This document shows positions 1,009 through 51,170 of a DNA stretch of 64,000 nt, in pieces. The first letter of the stretch is position 1, and the number at the start of each line of letters is the position of its first letter. A program made the translations under genes and the position numbers. The stretch comes from Candidatus Latescibacterota bacterium (GTDB taxonomy: Bacteria; Latescibacterota; UBA2968; GCA-2709665): positions 256,001 to 320,000 of the forward strand of contig CAXXXF010000004.1 in assembly GCA_963667175.2 (NCBI GenBank), read 5' to 3'. Below the pieces are notes generated by a model, which ran no database searches, was not told the DNA's origin, and was given only the letters and a program-made list of their open reading frames with translations.

Positions 1009-1260
1009 ATGGCGGAGGAAAGAAAACAATCGGGTCTCGCGGCAGCCTATCGGAAGGCGGGTCCCTATCTGAACCTGGGGATCGAGTTTGCGGCGGCCAT
1101 TCTGCTCTGCCTCTTTGGCGGACGGTGGCTGGACGGAAAACTGGGAACGGCCCCGTATCTGATGCTGGTCGGTACGTTTCTGGGCATCACCGTCGGTTTT
1201 CTGAACCTTTACAGAACGGCAATTCGACTCCAGGAACGCGATCAGAAGGACATCCAATAG
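1009..1260 (+). CDS. AtpZ/AtpI-family small membrane protein
   Basis: Two TM segments flanking GRWLDGKLGTAPYLMLVG; first gene before the Fo genes. Confidence 0.85.
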   Translation: MAEERKQSGLAAAYRKAGPYLNLGIEFAAAILLCLFGGRWLDGKLGTAPYLMLVGTFLGITVGFLNLYRTAIRLQERDQKDIQ

Positions 1261-1280
1261 CGGCCGTCCGGGGAGATTAG

Positions 1281-1467
1281 CAGTCCGTTGAAAAAGTCGC
1301 TCTGCAGGCGAGGGCGAGTCATTGTGGCCGCAGACAAGGCGCGCCTGTCTGCGTGCCTGCCTGCGCCGAGACGTGCTCGGCAGGCAGGCGGACACGCACA
1401 GGCAGGCAACGCCGTATTTCGGTCACAAGGGCCGGACGCAGACCGGATGGACTTTATCAACGGGCTG
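1281..1467. mobile_element. MITE copy 1 (187 bp) with 18-bp terminal inverted repeats
   Basis: CAGTCCGTTGAAAAAGTC ... GACTTTATCAACGGGCTG; related copies at 3026, 11836 and 44680. Confidence 0.85.
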
Positions 1468-1878
1468 TCAGACTTGGGAACGGAATTCCTCCGATTTGGC
1501 GGGCAGGTCGGGGCTGTCGTGATCGTGGCGGTGGTTTTGGGCGGTTTCCCGCTATACCTCTATTGGGGCGTTGAAATGGTCCATGCGGCCGCCGTCGGAT
1601 TTGGCATTGGCGCACTGAACGCACTGGCCGGGGGGCTCTCGGCCATCTGGTCGTTCGACCGGCCGCAGTCGGTCTTCCTGAAGACGCTGCTGGGTGGAAT
1701 GGTCCTGAGGATGCTGGTCATCTGCGGCGTGCTGGTTCTCCTGATCGAAATCACTGCGTTGTCGATTTACGGGTTGGTATTCTCTCTCTTTCTGTCGTAC
1801 CTGCTCTTTCAGATTCTGGAAATCCGGTTCTTTGTGAGGCGTGCCGCGGTTCGGCGGGCGACAAAAGAAGGGGTTTGA
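1447..1878 (+). CDS. atpI: ATP synthase subunit I-like membrane protein (start at ATG 1447 inside the MITE, or TTG 1474)
   Basis: Four TM segments, FLKTLLGGMVLRM and YLLFQILE; immediately upstream of atpB. Confidence 0.75.
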   Translation: MDFINGLSDLGTEFLRFGGQVGAVVIVAVVLGGFPLYLYWGVEMVHAAAVGFGIGALNALAGGLSAIWSFDRPQSVFLKTLLGGMVLRMLVICGVLVLLIEITALSIYGLVFSLFLSYLLFQILEIRFFVRRAAVRRATKEGV

Positions 1879-1882
1879 CTCA

Positions 1883-2683
1883 ATGGCCTCAGAAAACGCC
1901 GCGGAAGGCAAAAAAGACTACATCATGGAGCACCTGCTCGATTCTTCGGAGCTCCATCTGCCCTTCGTGCACGTCGAACTGCCTCGCTTCGAGCTGTTCG
2001 GCATTGACGTAACCATCACCCGGCACGTGGTCATGATGTGGGTTGCGGCCGCCTTTCTGCTGTGGATCTTCACCTCGACAACCCGGCGCCGCGGTCTGGT
2101 ACCCTCCGGGCTGGCCAATCTACTGGAGTGGGTTGTCGTCTTTATCCGGGATGAAGTCGCCGTTCCCAACATCGGCGCAAGAGAGGCCGGGCGGTTCCTG
2201 CCCTTTCTGTTTACCGTATTTTTCTTCATCCTGACCTGCAATCTGCTGGGCCTGGTACCCTACGGCGCAACCGCAACCGGCAATGTGAGCGTAACCGCCG
2301 GGCTGGCCGTCTGTGCCTTTCTGGTGATTCAAATGGGTGGCGTTCTGCACAACGGCCTTCTGGGTTACTTCAAAGGACTGGTGCCGCACGGACTTCCCCT
2401 GCCGATCACGCTCCTGATGATCCCTATCGAGCTCATCGGTCTGATTGCCAAGCCTTTTGCGCTGTGTATCCGTCTCTTCGCCAATATGACTGCCGGACAC
2501 GTGATTATTCTGGGGTTGCTGGGACTGATTTTCATGTTCAAGTCGTACGCCGTGGCGCCCGTGTCCGTGGCATTCGCGCTGGCGATTTACCTGCTCGAAA
2601 TCTTCGTGGCGCTGGTGCAGGCGTACATATTCACCATGTTGTCCGCCGTCTTTATCGGGATGGCTGTGCATCAGGACCACTGA
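1883..2683 (+). CDS. atpB: F0F1 ATP synthase subunit a
   Basis: KPFALCIRLFANMTAGH, EIFVALVQAYIFTML. Confidence 0.97.
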   Translation: MASENAAEGKKDYIMEHLLDSSELHLPFVHVELPRFELFGIDVTITRHVVMMWVAAAFLLWIFTSTTRRRGLVPSGLANLLEWVVVFIRDEVAVPNIGAREAGRFLPFLFTVFFFILTCNLLGLVPYGATATGNVSVTAGLAVCAFLVIQMGGVLHNGLLGYFKGLVPHGLPLPITLLMIPIELIGLIAKPFALCIRLFANMTAGHVIILGLLGLIFMFKSYAVAPVSVAFALAIYLLEIFVALVQAYIFTMLSAVFIGMAVHQDH

Positions 2684-2747
2684 GCGTAGAATCACGCTGT
2701 GATCGTTTCACTGTAAACCCTTATTTTCCTAGCGGAGGAGGTGTGTT

Positions 2748-2999
2748 GTGGCAGACGTGGCATCCGTGGCGGCCGAAGCATACGGTTATCTGTCCGCAGG
2801 CATTGGCGCGGGGCTGGTAACGATCGGCGCCGGTATTGGAATCGGACGTTTGGCCGGTATGGCCGTAGAGGGCACCGCGCGGCAGCCCGAAGCGGCCGGC
2901 GATATCCGTACCTCGATGATCATTACGGCGGCGTTCATAGAGGGTGTGGCCCTTTTCGGGCAGGTGGTCTGCTTTCTTCTGGCAACAAAAGGCGGCTGA
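2748..2999 (+). CDS. atpE: ATP synthase F0 subunit c
   Basis: GAGIGIG, ARQPEA, essential Glu in FIEGVALF; GGAGG RBS. Confidence 0.97.
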   Translation: MADVASVAAEAYGYLSAGIGAGLVTIGAGIGIGRLAGMAVEGTARQPEAAGDIRTSMIITAAFIEGVALFGQVVCFLLATKGG

Positions 3000-3025
3000 G
3001 AAAGCAACCCATTGAGGACGTCTAA

Positions 3026-3295
3026 CAGTCCGTTGAAAAAGTCGCTCCGCAGGCGAGGCCGAGGCATTGTGGCCGAAGACAAGGCGCGCCTGTCTGCGTG
3101 CCTGCCTGCGCCGAGACGTGCTCGGCAGGCAGGCGGACACGCACAGGCAGGCGACCGACGCGAATCCCTGGATTCAGGGAGGGAGCGCCTGCCTGCCGCA
3201 GGCAGGCAACACGGTAATCCGGCCACAAGGGCCGGACACCTGTCTGCGTGCGAACGCACAGGCAGGCAGCCCGGATGTGCTTTTTCAAAGGGCTG
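3026..3295. mobile_element. MITE copy 2 (270 bp) between atpE and atpF
   Basis: CAGTCCGTTGAAAAAGTC ... GCTTTTTCAAAGGGCTG; carries palindromic modules at 3089-3151, 3188-3206 and 3239-3266. Confidence 0.85.
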
Positions 3296-3314
3296 ATAAA
3301 CCAGAGGAACGGGT

Positions 3315-3812
3315 ATGTTGCTGAATGTCGATACAGGTCTGATGTTCTGGACCATTGTTACCTTTGTCCTGCTTCTGCTTGTTCTCAAGCGTGTTGCCTG
3401 GAAACCCCTGCTGGCCATGCTGGAGGAGCGTGAAAAGCGCATTCGGGATTCCCTGAACCAGGCCGAAAAAGCCAGGGAAGAAGCGCAGAGCGCGGCTGAA
3501 CAAAACCGTCGGGCCATGGAGCAGGCGCAGGCCGACGCCCGGCAGGCGATTTCGGAAGGGCGGGAAACGGCCGAGCGCGCGGCGCAGGAAGTGCGCGAAC
3601 GCGCGGCGGAAGAAGCGCGGCAGATGCTGGAGCAGGCCCGGCGGACGATTCGGCAGGAGAAGGAGCAGGCGATCCAGGAATTGCGCACGCACGCCGCGGG
3701 TTTGGCCATCGAAGCCGCGGGCAAAGTACTGGACGAGAATCTGGACAATGAGAGAAACCGGAAGCTGGTCGACGAGTTTATCGACAGCATTCCGGAACCG
3801 GGTCAAAACTGA
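3315..3812 (+). CDS. atpF: F0F1 ATP synthase subunit b
   Basis: N-terminal TM, AWKPLLAMLEERE, long coiled coil. Confidence 0.95.
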   Translation: MLLNVDTGLMFWTIVTFVLLLLVLKRVAWKPLLAMLEEREKRIRDSLNQAEKAREEAQSAAEQNRRAMEQAQADARQAISEGRETAERAAQEVRERAAEEARQMLEQARRTIRQEKEQAIQELRTHAAGLAIEAAGKVLDENLDNERNRKLVDEFIDSIPEPGQN

Positions 3813-3827
3813 TTTCCGGAGCCGAAC

Positions 3828-4367
3828 TTGAACGAAACCCCCGTCGCAATGCGATATGCCAGGGCGCTGATCCAGGCGGCAGAAGAGCGGGATGCGCTGG
3901 ACCGGGTCCGTGAGGACCTGGAGGGTCTTCTTGACCTGATCCGTGAGTCGGAAGACCTGCGGGCCTTTCTGAGCGACCCCCTGACTTATCCGGAACAGAA
4001 GCGGTCGGCCGTCCGGAGGCTTTTTTCGGGCCGGACCGGCGATCTCACGCTGAATTTCCTGCTGCTGTTGTGCGACAAAAGGCGCGAACGGGGACTCGAC
4101 GGGATCATCAGGGCCTTTCTGACGCTTCTCGATGAACGAAGGGGCATGATCACCGCATACGTGAGGTCGGCGCAGGAACTCTCAGAGGACCAGCGCGCGA
4201 GGATCGCGCGGCGGTTGTCGAGTTATTCAGGGAAGCAGGTACGGCTGGACGTGCAAGTCGACGAGGGACTCAAAGCGGGTTTTGTGACCAGGATGGGGGA
4301 CCACGTGTTCGACGCAACCCTCGAAGCGCAGTTGAATCGGATGCGCCAGAGGCTGGTTTCGGGCTGA
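3828..4367 (+). CDS. atpH: ATP synthase F1 subunit delta
   Basis: VAMRYARAL, NFLLLLCDKRR, VDEGLKAG; operon position. Confidence 0.93.
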   Translation: MNETPVAMRYARALIQAAEERDALDRVREDLEGLLDLIRESEDLRAFLSDPLTYPEQKRSAVRRLFSGRTGDLTLNFLLLLCDKRRERGLDGIIRAFLTLLDERRGMITAYVRSAQELSEDQRARIARRLSSYSGKQVRLDVQVDEGLKAGFVTRMGDHVFDATLEAQLNRMRQRLVSG

Positions 4368-4387
4368 TAACCGAGGTGTAGACACTT

Positions 4388-5908
4388 ATGGCGATGAACT
4401 TGCAGATTCGCCCCGATGAGGTCTCCGATATTCTCAAGCAGCAGATACTGGAGGTCGAACGGGACATTGACGTTTACGAAACCGGAACCGTGCTGCAGGT
4501 GGGGGACGGCGTGGCGCGCGTTCACGGCCTGGGCAACGCGCAGGCCAGCGAGTTGGTGGCGTTTCCCGATAACATCATGGGCATGGCGTTCAACCTGGAA
4601 GAGGACAACGTCGGCTGCGTCCTTTTCGGGGACGACACGGCAATCAAAGAGGGCGATCAGGTTCGGCGTACGGGACGCGTCGTCGAAGTCCCCGTGGGAG
4701 ACGAATTGCTGGGCCGGGTGGTGACGCCTCTGGGCGAACCGCTGGATGGAAAGGGGCCGGTTGGCGCCTCGCAGACGTTGCCGGTGGAGCGGATTGCGCC
4801 CGGCGTGATCCAGCGCCAGCCGGTGGAGGAAGCGCTGCAGACGGGAATCAAGGTCGTGGACGCCGCAACGCCGATCGGGCGCGGACAGCGGGAGTTGATC
4901 ATCGGGGACCGGCAAACCGGGAAGACGGCCATCGGGCTGGACGCCATCATCAATCAGAAAGACAGCGGCGTCAAATGCATCTACGTGGGTATCGGACAGA
5001 AGGCGTCGTCCGTGGCAAAAGTGGTTGCCGAACTCGAGGCAAACGGCGCCCTGGAGTACACAATCGTGGTTTCGGCCACGGCCAGCGATCCGGCGCCGCT
5101 CCAGTTCCTGGCGCCCTACGCCGGATGTTCGATGGGCGAATACTTCCGCGACAAGGGCGAACACGCGCTGATCGTGTACGACGATCTCTCCAAGCAGGCG
5201 TGGGCCTACAGGGAAATGGCCCTCGTCCTGCGCCGGCCGCCGGGGCGGGAAGCCTATCCCGGCGACGTGTTCTACCTGCACTCGCGCCTTCTGGAACGCG
5301 CCTGCAAATTGAGCGACGAGGAGGGCGCAGGCTCACTCACGGCGCTGCCCATCATCGAGATCCTCGAAGGAGACGTATCCACGTTCGTGCCGACCAACGT
5401 GATCTCGATCACCGACGGTCAGATTCTGCTGAAGCCGGAGTTGTTCTATTCCGGAATCCGTCCGGCCATGGACGTGGGCGCTTCCGTTTCCAGGGTCAGT
5501 TCGGCCAAAACACGGGCGATGCGGTCGGTTTCCGGCACGTTGAGCGGCGATATCGCGCGATACAACGAGGTCCAGGCCTTCGCACAGTTCGGGGCTTCGG
5601 ACCTGGACATGGCCACCCGGAACCTGCTGAACCGAGGAGAGAAACTGATCGAGATTCTCAAACAGGACCAGTACACGCCCATGTCGCTGGGCGAGCAGGT
5701 GGTGTCCCTGACCGTCGGCGCGAGCATCGACGAACTGCCCACGGACGACGTGCGGCGGTTTGAGACCGAGGCACTGGCCTACATGCGAGACCACCACCAG
5801 GACGTGGTGGACGAGATCACGAGAAGCGAAGAACTGAGCGATGAGGCGAAGACCGTCATCGAAGCCGCTATCGAGAGCGTAAAGCGCGGCTTTCAGGTGT
5901 CGGCGTAG
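4388..5908 (+). CDS. atpA: ATP synthase F1 subunit alpha
   Basis: [42 protein letters not shown]. Confidence 0.98.
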
Positions 5909-5927
5909 GCGCGCGGGGGAGTAGCCG

Positions 5928-6779
5928 GTGGCAACGTTGCGTCAACTCAGAAACCGGGTAACCGGGGTCACAAATATCCAGAAGGTGACACACGCCATGC
6001 AGCTGGTTGCCGCGGCCAGGGTGCGCAAAGCCCAGGATGCGATCCTGGCCGCCCGGCCCTATGCGGAGCAACTCGACCGCACCCTTCAACGGCTTACCGC
6101 AAGCATCGACGCGGATCGGCATCCTCTGTTCCGTCACGGGGAATCCGGCCGGACCGCGGTTGCGGTGGTGACGGCGGACCGCGGCCTGTGCGGCGGTTTT
6201 AACGCCGGCATCTGCCGGAAAGCGCTTTCGGTACTGGAAGAACATGGAGAGGTCGAACTGGTCGCGATCGGCAGGAAGGGACGCGACTTCTTTCACAACC
6301 GCGGAGTACCGATCAGTCGCGAATACCTCGACGTGTTTGGCAACCTGAATTTCGATCAGGCCATGGAAATCGCCGGCGACCTGACGGAGCGCTTCGTATC
6401 CGGTGACGTGGACCAGGTGTGGATTGCCAACAACGAATTCCTCTCGCTTGGACGGCAGGAGCCCGTGATCAACCTTCTTCTTCCGGTTGCGCCGCACGAA
6501 ACCGCCGAGGAAGGCCCGTCCGGCGAGTACATCTTCGAGCCTGAACCCGAACAATTGCTGAATTCGCTCGTTCCCAGGCACGTGAACTACCAGGTATGGC
6601 GCGCCCTGCTGGAGTCCAACGTCGGAGAGCAGGCTGCGCGCATGGCGGCCATGGACAACGCGACGAAGAACGCGGGAGACCTGATCGAAGATTTGACGCG
6701 CGAGATGAACAAGGTGCGCCAGTCTTCGATTACACTGGAGCTGATGGACATCATCGGCGGCGCCGAGGCCGTGGCGTAG
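5928..6779 (+). CDS. atpG: ATP synthase F1 subunit gamma
   Basis: KVTHAMQLVAAA, DRGLCGGFN, RMAAMDNATKNA, RQSSITLELMDI. Confidence 0.97.
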   Translation: MATLRQLRNRVTGVTNIQKVTHAMQLVAAARVRKAQDAILAARPYAEQLDRTLQRLTASIDADRHPLFRHGESGRTAVAVVTADRGLCGGFNAGICRKALSVLEEHGEVELVAIGRKGRDFFHNRGVPISREYLDVFGNLNFDQAMEIAGDLTERFVSGDVDQVWIANNEFLSLGRQEPVINLLLPVAPHETAEEGPSGEYIFEPEPEQLLNSLVPRHVNYQVWRALLESNVGEQAARMAAMDNATKNAGDLIEDLTREMNKVRQSSITLELMDIIGGAEAVA

Positions 6780-6806
6780 GACGGTTTTCGCGCATGTCGC
6801 GGCTAC

Positions 6807-8393
<1,587 letters not shown>

Positions 8394-8418
8394 GGTCTGT
8401 ATTACACACGGGGCACTG

Positions 8419-8823
8419 ATGCCGGGGTTTCATCTCGAGATTGTAACACCGGAAAAAACGGTTTATTCGGGTGAAGTGGAGAGCCTGCGCGCGCCTGGCG
8501 TCGAGGGCGGGTTCGGCGTGCTTGCCGGGCACCATCCGATGCTGACCGCGCTGGACATCGGCTGGATGTCCTTTTCCGACCGGGAGCATGGATCGAGGTC
8601 GGTCGCGATCGGCGGCGGGTTCGCGGAAGTCCAGCGCGATAGCGTTACCATTCTTGCGGAGACGGCGGAATTCGCGGAGGAAATCGACGTGACCCGAGCA
8701 GAAGGCGCCAGGGATCGCGCCCGTGAAAGGCTGGCGCGAAAACGGGAACAGCAGATCGACGAGACGCGGGCGAACCTGGCCCTGGCCCGGGCGGCCAACC
8801 GGCTGCGGATCGGGGGACTTTAG
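8419..8823 (+). CDS. atpC: ATP synthase F1 subunit epsilon
   Basis: LEIVTPE, GVLAGHHP, GGFAEV. Confidence 0.96.
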   Translation: MPGFHLEIVTPEKTVYSGEVESLRAPGVEGGFGVLAGHHPMLTALDIGWMSFSDREHGSRSVAIGGGFAEVQRDSVTILAETAEFAEEIDVTRAEGARDRARERLARKREQQIDETRANLALARAANRLRIGGL

Positions 8824-8901: not shown

Positions 8902-9168
8902 GGCGGGCAACAACAAAGGTTGCCCCTACAACAAGGATTCGCAACGCAACGCGGGCGGTTCGCGAACCGCCCCGACACAAAGACGGGTTCCCCGTTCTGC
9001 TCCCCCTCTCCCTCCGGGAGAGGGGGCCTGCCTGCCGAGCAGAACTCGGCGCAGGCAGGCCGGGGGGAGAGGTCCCGGGAGCGAGGGCATCCTGCCCTCG
9101 GAACGCCCCTCGCGGTCCTGTCTCTTCACGGCGTTGACGTCATTGGGTTGGTCTTGATTCAAGCTGAC
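8902..9168. repeat. Cluster of REP-like palindromes, including a CCCCTCTCCC...GGGAGAGGGG repeat with a nested 33-bp CCTG...CAGG palindrome (9027-9059)
   Basis: gcgggcaac..gttgcccctac; cgggcggttcgcgaaccgcccc; the nested unit is identical to 43786-43818. Confidence 0.8.
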
Positions 9169-9190
9169 CACTGTCTTTACGAGGTTCTAC

Positions 9191-9943: not shown

Positions 9944-10030
9944 ATCCTGTCCGGCTTGCCTTGTTCTTGACGTCCGGCGGAACATTGTGTATACATTGAA
10001 AAACCGGTGCCTCAACGAAAGTATAGGACA

Positions 10031-10342
10031 ATGGCTGATTCGAAAGTAGACAGGCTCGTTGGCGAGGTCGTAAAGCGTGTGAATCCACTGCGAATCGTGC
10101 TCTTCGGCTCAGCAGCCAGAAACGAGTCAGGGCTGCAGGGCGACATCGATCTTCTGGTCGTCATGCCCGACGGCGCCCATCGGCGGCGAACCGCGCAGAA
10201 ACTCTACCGAGAAGTCAAAGGCCTGGCCGTACCATTCGATATTGTCGTCGCAACCGAACAGGACCTGAAAGAGCACAAAAACAATGACGGCCTGATCTAC
10301 AAGAACGCCCTCAGGGAAGGCATTGAAGTCTATGGGCTCTGA
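10031..10342 (+). CDS. Minimal nucleotidyltransferase (MNT antitoxin)
   Basis: LFGSAAR...GDIDLLVV; overlaps the downstream HEPN gene. Confidence 0.9.
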   Translation: MADSKVDRLVGEVVKRVNPLRIVLFGSAARNESGLQGDIDLLVVMPDGAHRRRTAQKLYREVKGLAVPFDIVVATEQDLKEHKNNDGLIYKNALREGIEVYGL

Positions 10343-10733
10343 GACTCAGGTTCCAGGGAATGCCGAAGACTGGCTGCGCTACGCCAGGAGCGACCTGAAG
10401 CTTGCCCGCATCGATAGGCCAGAGGGTGTCTTGCTGGAGAACCTTTGTTTTCATGCTCAACAGGCTGTAGAAAAGACGCTAAAGGCAGTTCTTGTGTTCC
10501 CTAAGGTACATTTCCCCACCACCCACAATATTCGAACATTGATCGATTTCTTACCTGATATGGATATTCCGGAGTTCGTAGAAGACTCCGCAGCTCTGAC
10601 GGACTATGCCGTTGTGTCTCGATATCCCGGAAACATCGAGCCGGTCGAAGAAAACAAATACCGGCATTCAATTTTCGTTGCAGAGGCAGTCCTGAGTTGG
10701 GCAGAGACGTTGATTTACAAAGGCGATACATGA
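10332..10733 (+). CDS. HEPN domain protein
   Basis: WLRYARSDL, CFHAQQAVEKTLKA, THNI, SRYP. Confidence 0.9.
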   Translation: MGSETQVPGNAEDWLRYARSDLKLARIDRPEGVLLENLCFHAQQAVEKTLKAVLVFPKVHFPTTHNIRTLIDFLPDMDIPEFVEDSAALTDYAVVSRYPGNIEPVEENKYRHSIFVAEAVLSWAETLIYKGDT

Positions 10734-11095
10734 ACAACGTCATTGAACATATCGATCGCCTGAAATCGGAGTTGGGCGAATTACGGCCATTGCCTTCCGA
10801 GGTCGTAGGGCGAATCGAGCAAAAGCTCCGGATCAAGTCCAATTACCACTCGAATGCCATCGAAGGCAACAGCCTGACGCTTGGAGAAACGAAAAGCGTG
10901 ATCCTCCATGGACTGTCCGCCCATGGCATGAGGATGCGGGATCATTTTGATATTGAGAGCCATGATGATGCGACAAAGGCAGTTGAGGATGCAGTCAAAC
11001 ACAACGAACCTCTCAATGAGATCTTCATTCGGAATCTCCACAAAATACCGTTGAAAGCGCCCGATAGAATCGCTACGTCCAATGAAGGCGTATAG
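10730..11095 (+). pseudogene. Truncated Fic-family gene (N-terminal ~110 aa paralog of 15867-17192, no catalytic motif)
   Basis: YHSNAIEGNSLTLGET is nearly identical to the full Fic; similarity stops after FIRNLHKIPLKAP. Confidence 0.85.
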
Positions 11096-11150
11096 ATTGG
11101 CCGATTTCTCAGCTAATGACGACAAGACGACTCGACAGGAGTAATTAGTA

Positions 11151-11846
11151 ATGAGAATTGAGCCCGAAATCTCCGGAGTTTCGCTCGTTATGCTTGGCCA
11201 TTTCAATCCTGTGATATTTACACCCGCCTGGTTCGGATGGCATCAGCTTCTACCTAAGAGGGTAATCGAAGTTGCAGATACGAACATTGCGCATCCCCAA
11301 ATTTCGAGCTTTAACGCCGATTGGCTCAACATTCAAGTCGTTCCCGAACGTATGCAAATGGATACAACCCAGCCGCCCTACGTTCGGATTCGAGACCTGG
11401 CTGTCCGAATATTTCTCGAACACCTTCACCATACACCGCTAACCTCTGTCGGTATTAACCGTGACGTCCACTTTTGCGTGCAGGACCATAAACAGAGAGA
11501 CCGACTCGGAAAATTATTGGCGCCCGCAGAGCCTTGGGGTGATTGGGCAGCAAAACTTGGCCTGGATGGAAACCGCGGTGGAATGGTATCCCTTACGATG
11601 AGACAGGTAGACCCTTGTAACAGACCGGTTGGCGGGCAAATTAACGTTAAGGTGGAGCCATCCAATAGGGTCGCGCAAGAGCTTCCCGGGGTATACGTTG
11701 GGGTCAATGACCACTACGTTGTAGGAAATGTGGAACCACAGACGCAAACCAGCGAAGTCGTTGAGTTGATCGAGGAGAAATTCGACGATTCATTGCGCCG
11801 TGCCGACGAAATTATCGATCACATAATGTCCTTGACAGCCCGTTGA
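11151..11846 (+). CDS. Uncharacterised protein with GxFNPxIFxPxWF motif (cassette gene 1)
   Basis: 231-aa ORF, CAGGAG RBS, motifs GHFNPVIFTPAWF, HTPLTSVGIN, VNDH; its stop codon lies inside a MITE TIR. Confidence 0.8.
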   Translation: MRIEPEISGVSLVMLGHFNPVIFTPAWFGWHQLLPKRVIEVADTNIAHPQISSFNADWLNIQVVPERMQMDTTQPPYVRIRDLAVRIFLEHLHHTPLTSVGINRDVHFCVQDHKQRDRLGKLLAPAEPWGDWAAKLGLDGNRGGMVSLTMRQVDPCNRPVGGQINVKVEPSNRVAQELPGVYVGVNDHYVVGNVEPQTQTSEVVELIEEKFDDSLRRADEIIDHIMSLTAR

Positions 11847-12206
11847 TAGAGTCCATCCGGGCTGCCTGCCTGTGCGTTCGTACGCAGACAGGCGTCCGGC
11901 CCTTGTGGCCGAAATACTGCGTTGCCTGCCTGCAGCAGGCAGGCGCTCCCTCCCCGAATCCAGGGAATCGCGTCGGTCGCATGCTTTGTCTTCGGCCACA
12001 ATGACAAGTGTTCCGTCCCGGAAATAGATTGCCGAAATTCGACCGCCGAGTCGCCCGGCTGGCAAGACGCCTGAGCGAGGCGACCTGCCCAGGGTCACCA
12101 AGCGAAGGCAACGCCGCCAGACGGGATGAATCGGCGGATGGATGGTGACATATTTCCGGGAAGGGACACCATACCTCGCCTGCAGAGCGACTTTTTCAAC
12201 GGACTG
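11836..12206. mobile_element. MITE copy 3 (371 bp, inverted) containing a second nested MITE at 12008-12169
   Basis: CAGCCCGTTGATAGAGTC ... GACTTTTTCAACGGACTG; inner IRs GTGTTCCGTCCCGGAAATA / TATTTCCGGGAAGGGACAC. Confidence 0.85.
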
Positions 12207-12223
12207 TTAACGGAGGAACAATA

Positions 12224-12835
12224 ATGCCAGATTCAGCAGCCGCACCTGAAAGCAATAGCTTACATAGTACATCCAGCCTCAACGATAATTCGAGCGATGC
12301 CAGTGCGCCTAACCAATTGCTTCGGGAAAGATATGCGGATCGGATTACGGCGACATTACAACAGCCTCGCATCCCTCCAACGCACGACACTGATGTCGCG
12401 GACACTACGATTGAGGATCAAGTGACGTCGGCCCGAATCGGATCCGATTTAGGCAAAGTAATAGATTTTCCTGATTTAGCCGGGGTTTCAAGAACCGCGC
12501 CCAGCAGCAGTTTCCATTTGCTTCAGGAATGGGAAGGCTACGTAATCTTGAAGGGAAAGGAAGACTTCACGGTACGGCTATTGGATCTAACCACAGGTTC
12601 CACGTATGAAGAGGAAGAAGCTGTTATACCATTTTCCGAGATCACGGACGACGAACGCAAGCGCATGGGTCCTGGTAGCATTTTTCGCTGGGTCATTGGC
12701 TACGAGCGATCCGCCAGTGGGACCAAACAGCGCGTATCCCGGATCGTCTTTCGCGATCTTCCTGTGCTTACGAAACAAGAAATAATGGAGGCCGACCAAC
12801 GGGCTAAGAGGACGTCTCGGTTATGGGCAGATTGA
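12224..12835 (+). CDS. Uncharacterised protein, low-complexity N-terminus + LQEWEGYV...FRWVIGYE domain (cassette gene 2)
   Basis: GGAGGA RBS, 203 aa, overlaps the start of the MBL gene. Confidence 0.8.
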   Translation: MPDSAAAPESNSLHSTSSLNDNSSDASAPNQLLRERYADRITATLQQPRIPPTHDTDVADTTIEDQVTSARIGSDLGKVIDFPDLAGVSRTAPSSSFHLLQEWEGYVILKGKEDFTVRLLDLTTGSTYEEEEAVIPFSEITDDERKRMGPGSIFRWVIGYERSASGTKQRVSRIVFRDLPVLTKQEIMEADQRAKRTSRLWAD

Positions 12836-13009
12836 CAGCAGTTGGCGAACCACCAGAACAGGACGTCCTGGAAGTAACCCTATTGGGACCTGGCTATGGA
12901 GAATGCATTTTACTTCACATAGGTAACGGGAGTTGGGTAATTGTCGATTCCTGCATTGATGTGGATTCGCGCCCGGCAGCGTTGGCATATTTTCAAGACC
13001 TCGGTCTAA

Positions 13010-14562
13010 CCTTGATTCCGCAAAAATCAGGCGGCTTTCTGTAGCGCGTTGCAGATTTTCCGGTATTGTTTTTCGGTGTGTTTGTTGCGTTGTAGTCTCA
13101 GGGTGAGTCGTCCTTTTGGTCGGACGAGGTATCCGGCTTTGTTGATGAGTTCGAACCGGAGTGTGCGTATGGATTTGAGGGCCCATCGGTTGGTACTTTT
13201 CAAGGTGCGATTGCGTTGTGTCAGTCCGGTTTCGATTTGGAAGTTGGCCAGGAGGTTATGAGCGAGAATGACGAACTGTTGCCAAGCGCTATTGGCGTGG
13301 TAATCGTTAGTGGGAATGGTATCGAAGCTGAGTCCGGTCTTGAGTTCGCCGATGGCTTTCTCGTGTGCGCCTCGGCCTGCCATGAAGCGCCACAGCGCGC
13401 GCAACTTGAGGGGTAGGTTGGTGGCCACCGCGGAGTATTCGAAGGTGCCGTCATTGGGATCGAACAGGTCCAACTGGTAGTTCTTGCGAGTTTTATGCAT
13501 CACGCGTTTTCGAAAGATCGCTATGTTGAACGTGCGTTTCCATTTCTTGATCGTCAGCGTTGACGTGAAGCCGTCGACGCCTTTCTCGATCCTTTGCCAG
13601 TGGGTGCGTTGTTGGATTTGCTGCCGCAAGTCCAGGCCTTTCCAGAAGGGCACTTTGATGGCGTATGAGGCCTTGTTCTTGATGAGCGTTTTAAGCACGT
13701 CTTCCTTGAAATAGTCGCCATCCATACGGAATCGGAGGGTGTAGGCATCCCCCAAGCTTTCTTCGACCTGGGTAAACACGTCCTTTAGAAACGGGATGGA
13801 GGCGCTGCCGTCATTGACGTTGCCTGGACGGTTGTGCACGCCCAGAAAATGACCACTGTCGGCCAGGTAGGCGGTAATCGGATAGTAACTGGGCACTTTA
13901 CGATGGTGCGGATTATAGCCACGACGGGCACCGTCGACGTGCTTTCCCGTGCACAAGACCGTGCCGTCGACGTCGATGGTTAACGTGCGGGCGCGTAGCG
14001 ATGGGAGCGCATCGGCTACAACGTCGGCGTTGAGGCGTTTCAGGGCTTCCACGCCACGCCCCGTAAAGCGCTTCAAAAAGCGGCTGACACTGTCGTCGGA
14101 GGGCAGGTCACACAGTCCACAAAACCGCTGTATCAGGGGGTCCCCTTTTAGGAAATTCAGATGTCGCAGCCGTCGCCCACCAACCACTAACAAGCCCAAG
14201 ATCACGCGAGAAAGACTCACTACACCAAAATCACCGCCACACACCACACCACGGAGTGAGCCACGCAATTGACGGTTCCATTCAATCTTTCGCAAAAAAC
14301 GCATGAACGGTTCCAATCCCGCATACGACGTGAGGCCTTCACCGGTGAATTCCATCTCCAATTTGTCGTTGACACGACACCGTAAATCCGCTTTCTTTCG
14401 TCTCACAGCAGGTGGCCTTTCGTTTTGAGTTAAATGGGGGTATTGTCGCTTCCCAATATACCAAAATGAAAGGCCTTTTCCTATTGAAAATTATACACTT
14501 ATTCACAATTTGACGCCAACTTCATTGTAACGGAACTCAACCGCTTTTTTGCGGAATCAAGG
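13010..14562 (-). mobile_element. IS1380-family insertion sequence, 1553 bp
   Basis: 17-bp perfect TIR CCTTGATTCCGCAAAAA; 4-bp target duplication CTAA (13006-13009, 14563-14566). Confidence 0.93.
13027..14406 (-). CDS. IS1380-family DDE transposase
   Basis: LTSYAGL, TIDVDGT, RPGN, FRMDGDY, RGAHEKAIGELK. Confidence 0.93.
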   Translation of the reverse strand: MRRKKADLRCRVNDKLEMEFTGEGLTSYAGLEPFMRFLRKIEWNRQLRGSLRGVVCGGDFGVVSLSRVILGLLVVGGRRLRHLNFLKGDPLIQRFCGLCDLPSDDSVSRFLKRFTGRGVEALKRLNADVVADALPSLRARTLTIDVDGTVLCTGKHVDGARRGYNPHHRKVPSYYPITAYLADSGHFLGVHNRPGNVNDGSASIPFLKDVFTQVEESLGDAYTLRFRMDGDYFKEDVLKTLIKNKASYAIKVPFWKGLDLRQQIQQRTHWQRIEKGVDGFTSTLTIKKWKRTFNIAIFRKRVMHKTRKNYQLDLFDPNDGTFEYSAVATNLPLKLRALWRFMAGRGAHEKAIGELKTGLSFDTIPTNDYHANSAWQQFVILAHNLLANFQIETGLTQRNRTLKSTNRWALKSIRTLRFELINKAGYLVRPKGRLTLRLQRNKHTEKQYRKICNALQKAA

Positions 14563-15507
14563 CTAAACCCTGCTGATGTCGTTCGCCTTATTGTCGCGTC
14601 TCATTGGCATGACGACCACATACGAGGAATTGGAGAATTGGTCGATGTCTGCGCCAATGCGCATTTCTGCTGCGCATCTGCCCTTCGAGCAGAGGAATTT
14701 CTTGCCATGATGGACTCTGTAGCAAGCCGTCCGATGTCTAATGTAAGTTCTGGAATGCAGGAACTCTATACGGTCCGATCTCTTCTCGAAAAGAGATCCG
14801 TCAAACCCCTTTTCGCAATAGCAAATCGTAGAATCTTCAGGTGTGACAATTGCGAATTATGGTCCCTCTCGCCATTTGATAAGCATGTCGATGTCTTTTT
14901 GCGCCAAATTGACCGAATCCGACCTCAAGAAGGGGCGACAAAAAGGCGAATACACAGCTTGACTCCCAACGAAATTTCGGTTGTCCTGTTAGTCAAAATC
15001 GACAATACGGCGATTCTCCTGGGTTCCGATCTTGAAAGGCCGGGCTGGTTGGAAATACTCGCCTCAAATGAAAGACCGAATTGCAAAGCGTCGGTATTCA
15101 AGATTCCGCACCATGGTTCCCGAAACGCCCACGAGGATCGAGTTTGGACTGAGATGCTACACGACAATCCGATAGCAACTCTCACTCCATGGAAGAAAGG
15201 TGGACGAAGTTTGCCAGATGAAACGGATGTAACACGAATTCTATCTTTCACCCGAAAGGCTTACGCTACCTCAGCGTTACGAGTTTCCAATCGCAAACCC
15301 GCACGCAGACGAGCTAAGACGGTCGAAAAGTCCATTAGAGAAGTTAGCAAAAGGATCGGCGCCATAGCCCGCTCTTCCGGAATGATCCGGCTCCGCAGGG
15401 AGTTCGCGTCAAAACTCGACTGGGATATTACGATTGTTGCGCCAGCTCGCCAATTGATGTAATTAGCGGTGGTTCAAATTCAGAATTGGCAACACTACGC
15501 TTTTAGA

Positions 15508-15815
15508 ATAGGGTAAGCCGGTCCGTCGGCACAGGATGTTTCTACCGTTGGCTGCGCGCGTTGCCTGCTTCCCCAACGACGGCGGCCTTCCCCGATCGAT
15601 AGACGGACGGCGCCCGTATTATCTTTTTCTAGGCCTGCTCAGCGTTCACTGCGCGTTTCGGCCTGCATACTCGCCAAGTCGCCTTGCGGCCCTCGACACC
15701 GGAGGCTTGGGAGAGGTCGTTACCCTCATTCCCCGCACCGATTGCTACCGACCGAAGCAACAATTGTCGGGTGGGTCTCTCACCCACTGGAGTTCCGCGC
15801 CTTTTCATGGCGCAC
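15508..15815 (-). ncRNA. Group II intron remnant (5' domain I segment plus a possible 3' terminus; no RT ORF)
   Basis: Minus strand starts GTGCGCCATGAAAAGGCGCG...CCAGTGGGTGAGAGACCCACCCG...GGTAAC...GTGAACGCTGAGCAGGCC...GGGGAAGGC and ends ...GGCTTACCCTAT. Confidence 0.7.
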
Positions 15816-15866
15816 TGTCGATTTAAGGCTAAGTTGGGAAGAATCACTGATCTGCAGAAACAGACC

Positions 15867-17192
15867 ATGAGCAACGTCATTGAAAAAATCGATGCGTTGA
15901 AAGCGGAGTTGGACGCATTGCGGCCGCTGCCACCCGATGTTGTGGGGCGAATTGAGCAAAAGCTCCGAATTGAGTCGAACTATCACTCCAATGCCATCGA
16001 AGGCAACAGCCTGACCCTCGGAGAAACGAGAAGCCTGATTCTGCACGGCCTCACTTCTCATGGGAAGTCCATGCGCGACCATCTGGATATCGAGGGGCAC
16101 GACGAAGCGGTAAAGGCGATTGCGGATGCAGTCGAACGAAACGAATCTCTCAATGAAGTCTTCATCAGAAATCTTCACGGCGTACTGCTGAAGCAGCCGT
16201 ATGAGATTGACGCAATCAAGCCGGATGGGGAACCGACGAAGCGACTCATTTCCATCGGTAAATACAAGACACTTTCCAATAACGTGAGAACGACTACGGG
16301 TGAAATCTACTATTTCACGCCCCCCGACCAGGTAAAGCCGGCAATGAGCGACCTCATCGACTGGTATCGGCGAGCCGAGAAAGAGGGAGAGCATCCGATT
16401 GTCATCGCGGCGACGTTTCACTATCGTTTCGTCAGGATTCATCCGTTTGACGATGGGAACGGGCGCATGGCTCGGCTTCTGATGAACATGATCCTGATTA
16501 AACACGGCTATACTGTGGCAGTTGTACCCATACAACAAAGAAGCCGATACATCAGCACGCTGGAACAGGCCGACAATTCAGAAGACCTGTCCGAGTTTAT
16601 TGAGTGTATCGCGGAAAATTGCGAAAATACCCTGAATCTCCATCTGCGCGCCGCCCGTGGCGAGGACATCGAAGACGTCGAGGACATCGATAAAGAGATC
16701 GCGCTCTTTAAACGATCGATTCAAACTGGCGGAGGTGAGTTGTTTCAGGCCAGAGCGTACGCTGGGAACGTGCTGTATCCGCTTTTTTCCTATTGCAAAG
16801 AAAAATGTGAGCAATTTTCCGGCATGTTCGAAAGTGTCAATGCAGATAATGGTGAATGTTCTGTGAGAAATGCGGATGACAACGTCTCAAGTCTTGATCT
16901 GACTAAGGATCAAGTTAAAGCTTGGCCGGAATACGCCGTGTACGTTTCTACATCTTTGCTGATTTCCCTCAATCAATTTCAGGCCAAACAAGATGCCGAT
17001 TTTTTAATCCAAATTGAGAATGAAGTTGGATCGCATGGCTCCGTCTGGCGGTTTATGTCAATGGGACTTGACTACGAAAGAGAATATGCGGGTCAGGACC
17101 TGGAGGTACTCAAGAGGATGTTTAACGATATTATCAGGCAACTCATGGTAAGCCTCTCAGAGATTTCGGACGATCGGAAGGATGAGGAATAA
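15867..17192 (+). CDS. Fic family protein (class II, N-terminal inhibitory motif)
   Basis: HPFDDGNGRMAR, SNAIEGN. Confidence 0.93.
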   Translation: MSNVIEKIDALKAELDALRPLPPDVVGRIEQKLRIESNYHSNAIEGNSLTLGETRSLILHGLTSHGKSMRDHLDIEGHDEAVKAIADAVERNESLNEVFIRNLHGVLLKQPYEIDAIKPDGEPTKRLISIGKYKTLSNNVRTTTGEIYYFTPPDQVKPAMSDLIDWYRRAEKEGEHPIVIAATFHYRFVRIHPFDDGNGRMARLLMNMILIKHGYTVAVVPIQQRSRYISTLEQADNSEDLSEFIECIAENCENTLNLHLRAARGEDIEDVEDIDKEIALFKRSIQTGGGELFQARAYAGNVLYPLFSYCKEKCEQFSGMFESVNADNGECSVRNADDNVSSLDLTKDQVKAWPEYAVYVSTSLLISLNQFQAKQDADFLIQIENEVGSHGSVWRFMSMGLDYEREYAGQDLEVLKRMFNDIIRQLMVSLSEISDDRKDEE

Positions 17193-17238
17193 CGAGGCGA
17201 ACGGACGATATGGCGCGAATTCCGGACGTAGGCAAACC

Positions 17239-18408: not shown

Positions 18409-18417
18409 CTGGAATTG

Positions 18418-18732
18418 ATGAGCGCAAGAATCGACGTTCCAAAGAAAAAGATCGCCACCTTCTGCCGGCGAAACGGTATCCGTCGCATGGCCCTGTTCGG
18501 CTCGGTACTGCGCGACGACTTCACGCCCGAGAGCGACGTGGATGTACTCGTGGAGTTCGAGCCAGGCAAGACGCCGGGACTGGCGTTCTTCACCATGCAG
18601 GACGAGTTGTCGGAAATATATGGGAGAAGAGTGGATCTCCACACCTTCCGGGGCGTCGAAAGCAACCCCAATTGGCTGCTTCGGAAGGAAATACTCGGCT
18701 CGGCGGAGGCGGTCTATGACCAGGCGGGATGA
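18418..18732 (+). CDS. Minimal nucleotidyltransferase (MntA-type antitoxin)
   Basis: LFGSVLRDDFTPESDVDVLVEF, GRRVDL. Confidence 0.92.
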   Translation: MSARIDVPKKKIATFCRRNGIRRMALFGSVLRDDFTPESDVDVLVEFEPGKTPGLAFFTMQDELSEIYGRRVDLHTFRGVESNPNWLLRKEILGSAEAVYDQAG

Positions 18733-18778
18733 CCTGCCGCGGCTGATAGAGCAACTGGAATCCATCGTCAAAGAATAG
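18716..18778 (+). pseudogene. Internally deleted DUF86/HepT toxin remnant (20 aa)
   Basis: MTRRDD-LPRLIEQLESIVKE overlaps the MNT stop and resembles fused N- and C-termini of DUF86 proteins. Confidence 0.6.
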
Positions 18779-18905
18779 GTGTACCAACACAGCGCGGTCA
18801 GATGGTTGGATGTGCCCGTTGCTCCGGGTTCTTCGACCATCTGGCCGCGTTTGGTACATAGGGATATTCAAGGGCGTCCTGCGGGATCTCCCAGTCACCC
18901 CCATA

Positions 18906-22867: not shown

Positions 22868-23048
22868 ACCTACTCACACAAAGACACCAAGACACAAAGA
22901 AAACCGGAAACAACCAAAAGACGGGCAACCCGGAGAGATAGTGACGGGAGACGGGAGACGAATACGTCGTACCCTCATTCACAGGGCTCGGAGGAATGAC
23001 CTAAACCTACTCACACAAAGACACCAAGACACAAAGAAAACCGGAAAC
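22820..23048 (+). repeat. ~91-bp direct repeat (22820-22910, 22957-23048): 3' end of the lyase gene + CACAAAGACACCAAGACACAAAG tail
   Basis: DEYIVPSIAGLGEMT* versus DEYVVPSFTGLGGMT*, with identical downstream 45 bp. Confidence 0.9.
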
Positions 23049-23085
23049 GAAATTCTTCACTCTACGCATGGGACATTTCGGATCG

Positions 23086-23469: not shown

Positions 23470-23510
23470 ACCGTTTTTGATTTAGACCTCTTGCACTGGT
23501 TAGAAGCGCC

Positions 23511-43680: not shown

Positions 43681-43985
43681 CGGGGAGACGGGAGACCTAC
43701 CCCCTACCCCCCTTCCTGAAGGAAGGGGAACTGTGAACCGCTCAGGGCCTTCTGGTTTTCTCCCCCTTTCCTTTAGGAGAGGGGGCCTGCCTGCCGAGCA
43801 GAACTCGGCGCAGGCAGGCCGGGGGGAGAGGTCTGCGGCTATGATGTGACTTCATCACCTGGTCATATCGCTATCCGGCTTCGGCTGGAAGTCGAACGCA
43901 GATAGTTGCTTTTCTTTGTGTCTTCGTGTCTTTGTGTGAGCTGATTGTCAGCCTTTGATTCAAGCTGACCGCTGATGGCTGCTTT
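43681..43985. repeat. Composite intergenic repeat bundle with nested 33-bp CCTG...CAGG palindrome (43786-43818), GTGTCTTTGTGTGAG and TTGATTCAAGCTGAC modules
   Basis: Direct matches to 9027-9059, 23565-23590 and 6943-6957. Confidence 0.8.
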
Positions 43986-44007
43986 ATGACCAGAAAGGAT
44001 TTATCCC

Positions 44008-44679: not shown

Positions 44680-44769
44680 CAGCCCGTTGAGAAAGTCCAT
44701 CCGGTCTGCCTGGCTGGCCGGCAGACAGGCGTCCTGACTCGCCTGCGGAGCGACGTTCTCAACGGATTC
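44680..44769. mobile_element. MITE copy 4 (minimal ~90 bp, inverted)
   Basis: CAGCCCGTTGAGAAAGTC ... CGACGTTCTCAACGGATTC; abuts the rraA stop codon. Confidence 0.75.
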
Positions 44770-47751: not shown

Positions 47752-48258
47752 CGGGGAGACGTAAGACGTGAGACGGTAGAAGACGTCCTTGCCCGAATAG
47801 CTCTTCCTTTAAGCCGCCGACAGGAAGTGAAATCGCTCGGCGCATTCATATTCTCTCCCCGTCGACCACCCCCTATCCCCCTTCCCACGGGAAGGGGGAA
47901 CTGTCATCGCTTCAAGACATCTCGCTCTGCTCCCCCTCTCCCCCGGGAGAGGGGGCCTGCCTGCCGGCAGGCCGGCCGGGGGGAAGAGGTCTGCGCATCG
48001 GCGAGATTGTCTCGCCAGGCCGTATCGTCGTCCTGTGGCGCAGTGAGGTCCTCTTCCGTCTCCCGCCTGACCTCTCCCGTCTCACCGCCTTCAGGGAATT
48101 TGGGCAGACGTGGACGTTGATCTTGATTCTTGCTTTTGCTTCTCGCTGACCGCTGTTTGTTTTTCTTCGTGTCTTTGTGTCTCCGTGTGAGCTGCTTTTC
48201 GCTCTTGGTTCAAGCTGACGGCTGATAGCTGAACGCTGATAGCTGACGGCCGATAGCT
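47752..48258. repeat. Composite intergenic repeat bundle (GAGACG heptamers, CCCCTCTCCC repeat with nested 20-bp palindrome 47956-47975, GTGTCTTTGTGT, GCTGA heptamers)
   Basis: Same modules as at 6.9, 9.0 and 43.8 kb. Confidence 0.8.
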
Positions 48259-51168: not shown

Positions 51169-51170
51169 GC

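Follow-up and report, generated by a model that had tools for sequence, protein, structure and literature searches.

A minimal hairpin repeat identical across distant bacterial phyla is probably mobile, with a small GIY-YIG nuclease as a candidate mover

Twelve short hairpin modules stand at ten places in a 64,000-nucleotide stretch of a Candidatus Latescibacterota genome (GenBank assembly GCA_963667175.2, contig CAXXXF010000004.1, positions 256,001 to 320,000 of the forward strand; the whole stretch is referred to as the window, position 1 being its first letter). These modules are very probably copies of a mobile, horizontally spreading element, for which we propose a definition by two 9-base arms, CCTGCCTGC and GCAGGCAGG (with one T/A variant per arm in the window), that lie either abutted, in units of 18, 19 or 20 bp, or separated by a short variable middle, in units of 21-44 bp. 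For the fuller statement, a family of minimal mobile hairpins that includes a small GIY-YIG nuclease as its mover, the chances stand at about even. A first-pass annotation of the window had described the modules as minimal mobile hairpins without coding capacity; this is borne out mainly from outside the window, by at least 63 exact copies of one 20-bp form, CCTGCCTGCCGGCAGGCAGG, by their unrelated flanks, and by one exact insertion into a partial tRNA copy.

Species genomes were scanned for the two arms with 0-30 free bases between them; every match has both arms by construction, and the matches listed cover 124 loci, so that all counts are to be read as 'at least'. At gaps of 0, 1 and 2 bases the listed matches number 12, 21 and 65, respectively; none of those listed has a gap of 3-7 bases, and gaps of 8-26 bases together account for 37. 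The centre of 63 of the 65 listed gap-2 matches is CG, where 1 in 16 would be expected, giving in each case the perfect palindrome CCTGCCTGCCGGCAGGCAGG. By our own arithmetic, one 20-mer palindrome is expected by chance about 0.5 times in 596 Gb; the at least 63 exact copies of CCTGCCTGCCGGCAGGCAGG lie in 61 listed loci, in unrelated flanks and at a local G+C of 0.32-0.73. These loci include Patescibacteria (18), Bacteroidota (14, including cultured Winogradskyella and Flagellimonas), Omnitrophota (6), Gammaproteobacteria (6), Planctomycetota (5), deltaproteobacterial lineages or Desulfobacterota (4) and a Planctomycetota-Verrucomicrobiota-Chlamydiota (PVC) bacterium (2), with one locus each from Bdellovibrionales, Thermodesulfovibrionales and Chloroflexi. 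The same 20 letters thus span at least nine phylum-level groups, where the taxon of each locus is that of its record title and the grouping is our own.

An adapter or assembly artefact was considered as the source of these copies and is rejected: with a threshold able to show an exact copy, no exact CCTGCCTGCCGGCAGGCAGG turned up among complete E. coli genomes (28 Gb), phages (2.3 Gb) or plasmids (7.3 Gb); cultured isolates carry the unit (L024, L063); and the in-frame copies in protein genes have diverged in place.

On the strength of their letters, the window units are assigned to this widespread CCTGCCTGCCGGCAGGCAGG family. The window 19-mers are exact members of it, the one at 3188-3206 having the same sequence as 8 of the matches listed; the reverse complement of the 21-mer at 44709-44729 is one base off a 21-mer in a Thermodesulfobacteriota metagenome-assembled genome (L124, positions 162-182); and the first 13-15 bases of the 33-bp window type are common to units in three other loci (L026, L084, L121).

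How a copy enters can be read most directly in a curated WWE3 genome (L071). There, a 31-base copy of the 5' part of a tRNA-Lys gene carries CCTGCCTGCCGGCAGGCAGG between its bases 22 and 23; with the 20-mer removed, 33 bases (25 before and 8 after) are identical to the intact tRNA-Lys gene 276 bp downstream, and the insertion is exact, with no base duplicated and none lost. A comparable tRNA event in L056 is imprecise by one base; the same tRNA arm in L073 is occupied, at a position shifted by one base, by a different palindrome of 33 bp. The tRNA insertions fall in the D arm, and the interrupted pieces, in L071, L031, L056 and L073, are partial copies rather than genes split in two. Their recognition rested on visual inspection and on comparison with the intact gene; ARAGORN, applied to sequences from which the unit had been deleted in silico, gave a single doubtful tRNA across a junction (L056), and MAFFT did not open the 20-bp gap in two short tRNA alignments. 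A tRNA gene lies within 100 bp of the unit in 7 of the 120 listed loci scanned for this.

In L073 (1670-1720 and 1930-2090), the 33-bp GC-rich palindrome (arms CCCGCCCG / CGGGCGGG) occupies the D arm of a spare tRNA-Val fragment and precedes a GIY-YIG remnant, and an insert of about 170 bp that holds the 20-mer comes after the intact tRNA, together with a duplicated tRNA 3' end.

The sites entered are frequently hairpins themselves, a preference that had been suspected from the window. For 11 of 62 copies of CCTGCCTGCCGGCAGGCAGG, the two flanks are inverted repeats of each other over at least 6 bp, against 1.44 in 200 shuffles (largest 5), and a unit is nested within another unit in five unrelated genomes (L039, L081, L101, L043, L054) as well as at 1356 and 3101 of the window. 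The first-pass annotation had further placed insertion almost always at G^C, without target duplication. Within the window this stands: the base at -1 is G in 11 of the 12 modules and that at +1 is C in all of them, and no direct repeats of the kind left by target duplication occur at the module sites. The absence of duplication also agrees with the exact event in L071, but the G^C rule fails elsewhere, the base before CCTGCCTGCCGGCAGGCAGG being A in 24, G in 18, C in 12 and T in 8 copies; no conserved base or tetranucleotide is found 5' of the unit in the flanks of these 62 copies.

With respect to genes, the unit is intergenic in 55 of the 80 listed loci with 2-kb flanks (between tandem genes in 39, convergent genes in 8 and divergent genes in 8), lies within open reading frames (ORFs) of at least 150 residues in 16, and stands at a contig edge in 9. 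Genes for Rrf2-family regulators stand 4-140 bp from the unit in three unrelated genomes (L035, L090, L115), which could be chance or an operator-like use.

In several coding regions the unit reads in frame, and such units add 6-10 residues to the protein. In-frame PACRQAG-like peptides, anticipated in the first-pass annotation, are present in FtsK, RmlB, TruB, FtsW and SecF, and the unit is read through in others besides; in RmlB (L043) and TruB (L003), comparison with solved homologues places the extra residues exactly at the unit. In patescibacterial FtsK, the peptide LPAGRQA is contributed by the 20-mer and one further base. Of the 116 alignable FtsK orthologues (of 120; 4 were dropped for lack of the anchor motif), 13 have an LPAGRQA-like or decayed insert at one site and 9 have long inserts of other kinds, whereas the remaining 94 are without any. 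On a FastTree phylogeny computed with the insert columns left out, the 13 inserts need 10 changes, 7 of them forced by well-supported branches; shuffled assignments need 12.5 on average, and 6 of 500 are as low as 10. Such scatter implies repeated gain or repeated precise loss at one site; the homologue search ranked insert-bearing proteins higher, which inflates the share of inserts but not their scatter.

In the window itself, the modules have the form CCTG[C/T]CTG...CAG[G/A]CAGG, the 21-mer at 44709-44729 and the 20-mer at 47956-47975 being the two exceptions, and all of the palindromes picked out beforehand, including the nested 33-bp units and the one CCGG end, have the sequences ascribed to them (Table 1). 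There are 21 matches to CCTGYCTGC, where 100 shuffles have 1.01 on average and never more than 4, and 18 of the 21 fall in the ten module places; the other three (61234, 62450, 63674) are part of another hairpin, which precedes three kelch paralogues. For CAGRCAGG the count is 28, against 3.36 in shuffles. Folded as single-stranded DNA, every module is a hairpin, at -5.7 to -24.8 kcal/mol, with z-scores of -4.0 to -4.8 for the 33-bp and 63-bp forms and of -1.3 to -3.4 for the short ones. The 63-bp composite at 1344-1406 is the most stable (-24.8 kcal/mol, z -4.18); it has a 33-bp unit at the loop edge of an outer hairpin. The 33-bp unit at 9027-9059, which has atpC on one side and a nitroreductase gene on the other, reaches -13.9 kcal/mol (z -4.78). 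All window modules are intergenic, and Rfam at gathering thresholds recognises no family at any of them. A role as intrinsic terminators was considered and rejected: no module is followed by a T run when the sequence is read directly, so they do not look like such terminators.

Table 1. Hairpin modules of the window and the repeats that carry them
Feature	Position	Strand	Remarks
63-bp composite	1344..1406	+	outer hairpin 1344-1355 + 1389-1406; nested 33-bp unit 1356-1388; sequence read
63-bp composite, second copy	3089..3151	+	identical to 1344-1406; nested 33-bp unit 3101-3133
19-bp unit	3188..3206	.	9-bp arms CCTGCCTGC/GCAGGCAGG, single loop base C; fold -8.0 kcal/mol
28-bp unit	3239..3266	+	arms CCTGTCTGC / CAGGCAGG, imperfect stem; fills site empty in host copy 1
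33-bp unit	9027..9059	-	reverse orientation of 1356 type, 3 loop bases differ
28-bp unit	11865..11892	-	in host copy 3; opposite orientation to 3239-3266, one base different
19-bp unit	11925..11943	.	loop base A on + strand
33-bp unit	43786..43818	-	identical to 9027-9059
21-bp unit	44709..44729	-	in short host copy 4; + strand starts CCTGGCTG, ends CAGACAGG
20-bp unit	47956..47975	.	ends CCGG; one base off widespread 20-mer CCTGCCTGCCGGCAGGCAGG
MITE-like host copy 1	1281..1467	+	terminal inverted repeats CAGTCCGTTGAAAAAGTC / GACTTTATCAACGGGCTG
MITE-like host copy 2	3026..3295	+	all three module sites filled
MITE-like host copy 3	11836..12206	-	site 1 empty, sites 2 and 3 filled; extra ~190-bp insert near left end
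MITE-like host copy 4	44680..44769	-	short form without central part; carries 21-bp unit
Second host	9000..9074	+	C-rich/G-rich hairpin, then unit, then G-rich flank; further copies 43760-43833, 47930-47991

The modules of the window are carried by two other repeats, eight being counted in the first and four in the second. The first resembles a miniature inverted-repeat transposable element (MITE), and in an alignment of its four copies three positions for modules can be told apart. At site 1, copies 1 and 2 have the identical 63-bp composite and copy 3 is empty (junction AAGCATG|CGACCGAC). At site 2, a 19-mer is present in copies 2 and 3. Site 3 is occupied by a 28-mer in copies 2 and 3 and by a 21-mer in copy 4, and copy 1 is empty there (junction GGACG|CAGACC). 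Copy 1 further lacks 36 bp and the 19-mer, 55 bp in all, exactly between two GCAGGCAGG repeats. The regions 1278-1410 and 3023-3155 form a direct repeat of 95% identity, and the presence of the same 63-bp composite in two host copies indicates that it was copied along with its host, so that independent events must be fewer than twelve. The second host has units of 33, 33 and 20 bp at one shared position in its three copies, as had been observed before; the region 8998-9075 folds at -30.2 kcal/mol (z -4.2), and no empty copy of this host occurs in the window. The terminal repeat of the MITE-like host is absent from all 124 listed loci.

The explanation proposed is that these elements multiply inside genomes and have passed between distant phyla, each new copy entering precisely, without target duplication or loss, and landing often at or beside the apex of another hairpin, which may itself be a unit. 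Copies would persist where harm is small, that is between genes, in spare gene fragments and in frame in surface loops of proteins; in the window, two other repeat families would have been colonised and the units then copied with them. The mover would most likely be a small single-domain GIY-YIG nuclease encoded elsewhere in the genome. Known nucleases of this kind, termed Ssn, cut single-stranded DNA beside hairpin repeats of 20-50 nucleotides that flank their genes and occur in hundreds of copies, as described in the main text of that study (PMC11893778, Chenal et al., Nat Commun 2025). By analogy, the unit would fold on single-stranded DNA and the nuclease would recognise its arms and cut at its feet; since the unit is a perfect palindrome, we propose that cutting could work on either strand. 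The nuclease would also nick exposed hairpin loops, into which the freed or copied hairpin would be joined by host repair or ligase, and precise excision by the same cuts would leave clean empty sites. We infer the enzyme from its neighbourhood; its action on the unit, the single-stranded intermediate and the mode of joining are inferred as well.

That neighbourhood is as follows. No gene is consistently found beside the units among the 124 listed loci; in an all-against-all clustering of their ORFs of at least 40 residues, the largest cross-locus family is a small GIY-YIG protein, an ORF for which lies within 285 bp of the unit in 6 of the 124, on one side only. Four of these are recognised by the Pfam GIY-YIG profile at 1e-14 to 1e-18 (L051, L071, L023, L124), and two are fragments matched only by a custom profile (L017, L073). 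In the five loci with 2-kb flanks the distances are 19, 64, 91, 148 and 284 bp, for which uniform placement within 2 kb gives a chance of about 6e-5 (0.003 for the three with Pfam support). The unit is 19 to about 90 bp upstream of the GIY-YIG ORF in L071, L051 and L124 and 64 bp downstream of it in L017, and in L023 and L073 a tRNA gene stands between the two. L071 and L073 have a common layout, in which the GIY-YIG ORF stands after a spare 5' tRNA piece, whose D arm holds a palindrome, and before the intact tRNA; the two palindromes differ, as if each nuclease had its own hairpin. Among the best 120 homologues of these proteins, 8 have a predicted N-terminal extension of at least 12 residues, and 3 of the 8 read through a unit before the domain. 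Their nearest solved chains are those of UPF0213 (E about 6e-4), and NCBIfam has no name for them.

Two further arrangements were seen among these proteins. The homologues P0267 and P0286 have in common an odd N-terminal extension (PAWRGRNERSEFDDP-like), which may be the read-through of a different repeat, and in two different sequences, L124 (1-300) and protein P0242, an ORF resembling a type I restriction S subunit continues in frame at its C-terminal end into the unit and a GIY-YIG domain.

Several points weigh against a mobile family moved by such a nuclease. GIY-YIG enzymes hydrolyse DNA, and we know of none with a strand-joining activity; the insertion step is thus unexplained, and this is the weak point of the proposal. 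No GIY-YIG gene is found in the window, either by Pfam among 72 ORFs or by the custom profile among ORFs of at least 40 residues, and 118 of the 124 listed loci have none near the unit (44 of these with flanks of about 300 bp only). Nuclease genes could also land beside hairpins rather than move them, as could the IS110 gene of L025 and the RAYT-like gene of L061. The units are perfect palindromes without the oriented 5' motif that SsnA needs according to the main text of the Ssn paper, and the SRM pattern published there has one match in the window (0.76 in 50 shuffles), which is not at a module (PMC11893778). As regards mobility, some of the long scan matches, in coding regions of actinomycetes and Lachnospiraceae, are probably chance; the FtsK pattern, resting on a FastTree phylogeny only, could result from repeated precise loss or recombination. 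The filled and empty alleles that the first-pass annotation had compared align as it stated in copies 1 and 3, but the 55-bp gap of copy 1 is better read as a deletion between repeated module arms than as an empty site, and from the window alone gain and loss of modules are indistinguishable.

The missing joining step would be supplied if the units were instead like repetitive extragenic palindromes (REPs), moved by an HUH tyrosine transposase, either a REP-associated tyrosine transposase (RAYT) or a TnpA of the IS200/IS605 type, which cuts and rejoins single-stranded hairpins; that such an enzyme rejoins hairpins itself would explain insertion without duplication. We consider this improbable, although the precise insertions, the preference for hairpins and the occurrence in hairpin mosaics, as of REPs in bacterial interspersed mosaic elements, would all agree with it, and in L061 a Y1_Tnp gene (Pfam 1.9e-19) stands 39 bp from a 42-bp unit. 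This is, however, the only Y1 gene in the 124 listed loci, and it is flanked on both sides by repeats of its own (205-nucleotide direct repeats 98% alike, and TCAACCCC...GGGGTTGA and CCGGTG...CCGGTGG hairpins), among which the CCTGCCTGC unit is the odd member. Pfam finds no Y1_Tnp among the 72 window ORFs, the units start with CCTG and not with the GTAG head of REPs, and they lack the conserved 5' base or tetranucleotide that IS200/IS605 elements require. The first-pass annotation had named both a GIY-YIG-type and an HUH/RAYT-like enzyme as possible movers; the former turns out to be the commonest recurrent neighbour, an argument purely from neighbourhood, and the latter is represented by this lone gene with its own repeats.

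A small chance is also given to an explanation without any dedicated enzyme, in which slippage, template switching, gene conversion and deletion at palindromes shape the units, these are kept as useful hairpins (RNA-stabilising or protein-binding), and nuclease, IS110 and RAYT genes insert beside them. The deletion between the two GCAGGCAGG repeats of host copy 1 is of this kind, the three states of site 3 (empty, 28-mer, 21-mer) could represent a single hairpin remodelled, and the second host is filled in all three copies; the several different mobile genes near units, and the intergenic position of 55 of the 80 listed loci, fit as well. Local processes, however, cannot have placed an identical run of 20 letters in unrelated flanks across at least nine phylum-level groups, and they leave the identical centre of 63 of the 65 listed gap-2 matches unexplained; nor are the window units intrinsic terminators, and such a function would not be expected of units in coding regions and in a spare tRNA fragment. 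It is very improbable that the short units derive from a larger cut-and-paste transposon, as its footprints or by internal deletion, with the 9-base arms as its terminal inverted repeats: the constant arms around a middle of 0-26 bases would suit transposon ends, but target duplication is absent, half-sites that are not part of a full unit are few and in no case enclose an ORF as left and right ends (80 loci with 2-kb flanks), and the three DDE transposase genes of the window are not bounded by the arms.

Returning to mobile hairpins moved by a GIY-YIG nuclease, a stronger form of the proposal may be stated, which is tentative and on balance doubtful: that the 18-20-bp perfect palindrome, two abutted 9-base arms, is self-propagating across nine or more phylum-level groups and the smallest mobile DNA, moved from hairpin into hairpin by a GIY-YIG single-strand nuclease without strand transfer of the transposase type, along a route that would write 6-10-residue peptides into essential proteins and mark the spare halves left where the nuclease's own gene cassette splits a tRNA gene. 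If the units are mobile, the lower size limit of mobile DNA is 18-20 bp, with no coding capacity; if the proposal is true, one sequence can spread over Patescibacteria, Bacteroidota, the PVC and Fibrobacterota-Chlorobiota-Bacteroidota (FCB) groups and Proteobacteria, and nucleases of the Ssn type gain a possible biological role as movers of hairpin repeats, testable with a defined 20-base substrate. The units account for odd short inserts that conserved proteins of uncultured bacteria contain (LPAGRQA, PACRQAG and the like), and for part of the mosaics of intergenic repeats, which matters for annotation, alignment-based phylogeny and assembly.

The surroundings of the modules have repeats of other kinds. 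In host copies 1 to 3 of the MITE-like repeat, the core (1313-1330 and 1415-1430 in copy 1) reads GTCATT and then an 8-bp stem, TTGTGGCC ... GGCCACAA, a layout identical to that of the NTS repeats (GTCAT plus stem) as given in the main text of the Ssn paper (PMC11893778), and the hairpin units occupy its loop. The core fails the SRM pattern, so the likeness to NTS is unproven. The extra insert of about 190 bp in host copy 3 (11990-12180) is not present in the other copies. A PD-(D/E)XK gene (PDDEXK_3, 23068-23469) is flanked by tandem repeats of about 140-170 nucleotides (22817-23975), whose 35-nucleotide T/G-rich motif recurs at 43906-43940 and 48157-48191, 90-180 bp from two hairpin units, and again beside a 33-bp unit in a Latescibacterota genome (L034, 1946-1972). 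An intergenic repeat, GATTCAAGCTGAC...GCTGATGGCTGA, at 6931-6982, 9150-9173, 43943-43994 and 48193-48244, adjoins both the hairpin units and the 35-nucleotide motif, so that several intergenic regions are mosaics of at least four repeat families.

As to the genes of the window, it encodes the end of a nuo gene, the atp operon (1009-8823), toxin-antitoxin, Fic and polysaccharide-lyase-like genes, three DDE transposase genes and three kelch paralogues. Its source appears to be a member or relative of the Latescibacterota: the best named relatives of its AtpD, at 83-86% identity, are found in Latescibacteria and Gemmatimonadetes metagenome-assembled genomes, and another of its repeats recurs in one Latescibacterota locus. 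The kelch paralogues stand in tandem (60060-63609), each after a conserved hairpin of the type GGGCAGACAGG AA TGTCTGCCC (near 61230, 62446 and 63670); these hairpins have the string CAGACAGG in common with the units but belong to the gene duplication. Two islands of lower G+C (10000-19000 and 54000-58000, 0.50-0.53 against about 0.60) contain nucleotidyltransferase/HEPN and Fic genes and the three DDE transposase genes. At 15651-15789 on the minus strand, Rfam recognises group II intron domains D1-D4 (78 bits, gathering score 49), overlapping the start of a Fic-domain ORF (15684-17192, plus strand); 10692-10991 and 15829-16128 form a 300-nucleotide direct repeat of 75% identity, and 51118-51181 is a tandem array of about eight copies of an 8-bp unit (CTCGTTCC-like).

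Compared with systems already described, hairpin repeats moved in trans are not new: REP/RAYT and Ssn/SRM are known, as are mitochondrial GC clusters and the palindromic elements of Rickettsia. New, in that it was not found in the literature searched, is the combination of an 18-20-bp unit identical across phyla, entry at hairpin apices, recurrent in-frame inserts in essential proteins, and a layout of tRNA, palindrome and GIY-YIG gene. In that literature, subscription journals lying outside it, CCTGCCTGCCGGCAGGCAGG was not found, and searches on GIY-YIG, palindromes, hairpins, Patescibacteria and Ssn follow-ups gave only the Ssn paper as relevant; the matches listed for the two 10-base halves of CCTGCCTGCCGGCAGGCAGG include none in a bacterial-repeat context, and none is listed for the peptides LPAGRQA, PACRQAG and PAGRQAG.

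REPs and REPINs are short intergenic palindromes in many copies and in mosaics, non-autonomous and moved in trans by a RAYT without target duplication. The units are likewise short, mostly intergenic, numerous, mosaic-forming and free of duplication; they differ in having no GTAG-type head, in the perfect palindromy of their short forms, and in the lack of a linked Y1 transposase (none in the window and the one in L061), and whereas REP sequences are lineage-specific, CCTGCCTGCCGGCAGGCAGG is identical across phyla. The GC-rich hairpin elements of mitochondria (GC clusters in yeast, the PstI palindromes beside tRNA genes in Neurospora, and double-hairpin and repetitive hairpin-forming elements) resemble the units in being tiny GC-rich palindromes in AT-richer DNA, near tRNA genes and occasionally in frame, with a mobility deduced from filled and empty sites and a mover not known; they are, however, organellar, lineage-restricted and unrelated in sequence, whereas the units are bacterial, occur in many phyla and have a candidate nuclease. 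The Rickettsia palindromic elements also insert in frame into protein genes and are tolerated there, but they measure about 100-150 bp and belong to one genus, where the units add 6-10 residues. IS200/IS605 elements and their miniature derivatives have in common with the units the recognition of single-strand hairpins and insertion without duplication; they use two distinct subterminal hairpins and a fixed target tetranucleotide, whereas the unit is one symmetric hairpin with free flanks. From MITEs of DDE transposons the units differ in the absence of target-site duplication (exact in L071, none at the window sites) and of a parent element with the same ends and a transposase within the 2-kb flanks of 80 loci.

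Closest is the Ssn system, whose authors liken its layout of gene and repeat to an insertion sequence, mention IS200/IS605 in their Discussion, and count Rickettsia among the SRM-rich genera (PMC11893778, main text, as for the comparisons that follow). The Results, Discussion and Methods of that paper make no mention of insertion at hairpin apices, of nesting or of in-frame inserts in proteins, and in the 10 readable of its supplementary files the 8-base arm strings (CCTGCCTG, CAGGCAGG) are absent, as are Patescibacteria, Bacteroidota and Latescibacteria. By this comparison the units would match the Ssn system without being members of it. In both, hairpin repeats of 20-50 nucleotides (there NTS, dRS3 and SRM) occur in many copies, mostly between genes, and are similar in distant bacteria; all the modules are hairpins, and their abutted 18-19-bp forms lie just under the SRM size range. 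In both, a nuclease gene of about 80-95 residues can have a repeat beside it, but where the Ssn repeats flank a single-domain GIY-YIG gene of the cd10448 type, the units lie near a small GIY-YIG ORF in 6 of the 124 listed loci, on one side only, and in none of the window. Moreover, dRS3, like CCTGCCTGCCGGCAGGCAGG, is a palindrome of 20 bp.

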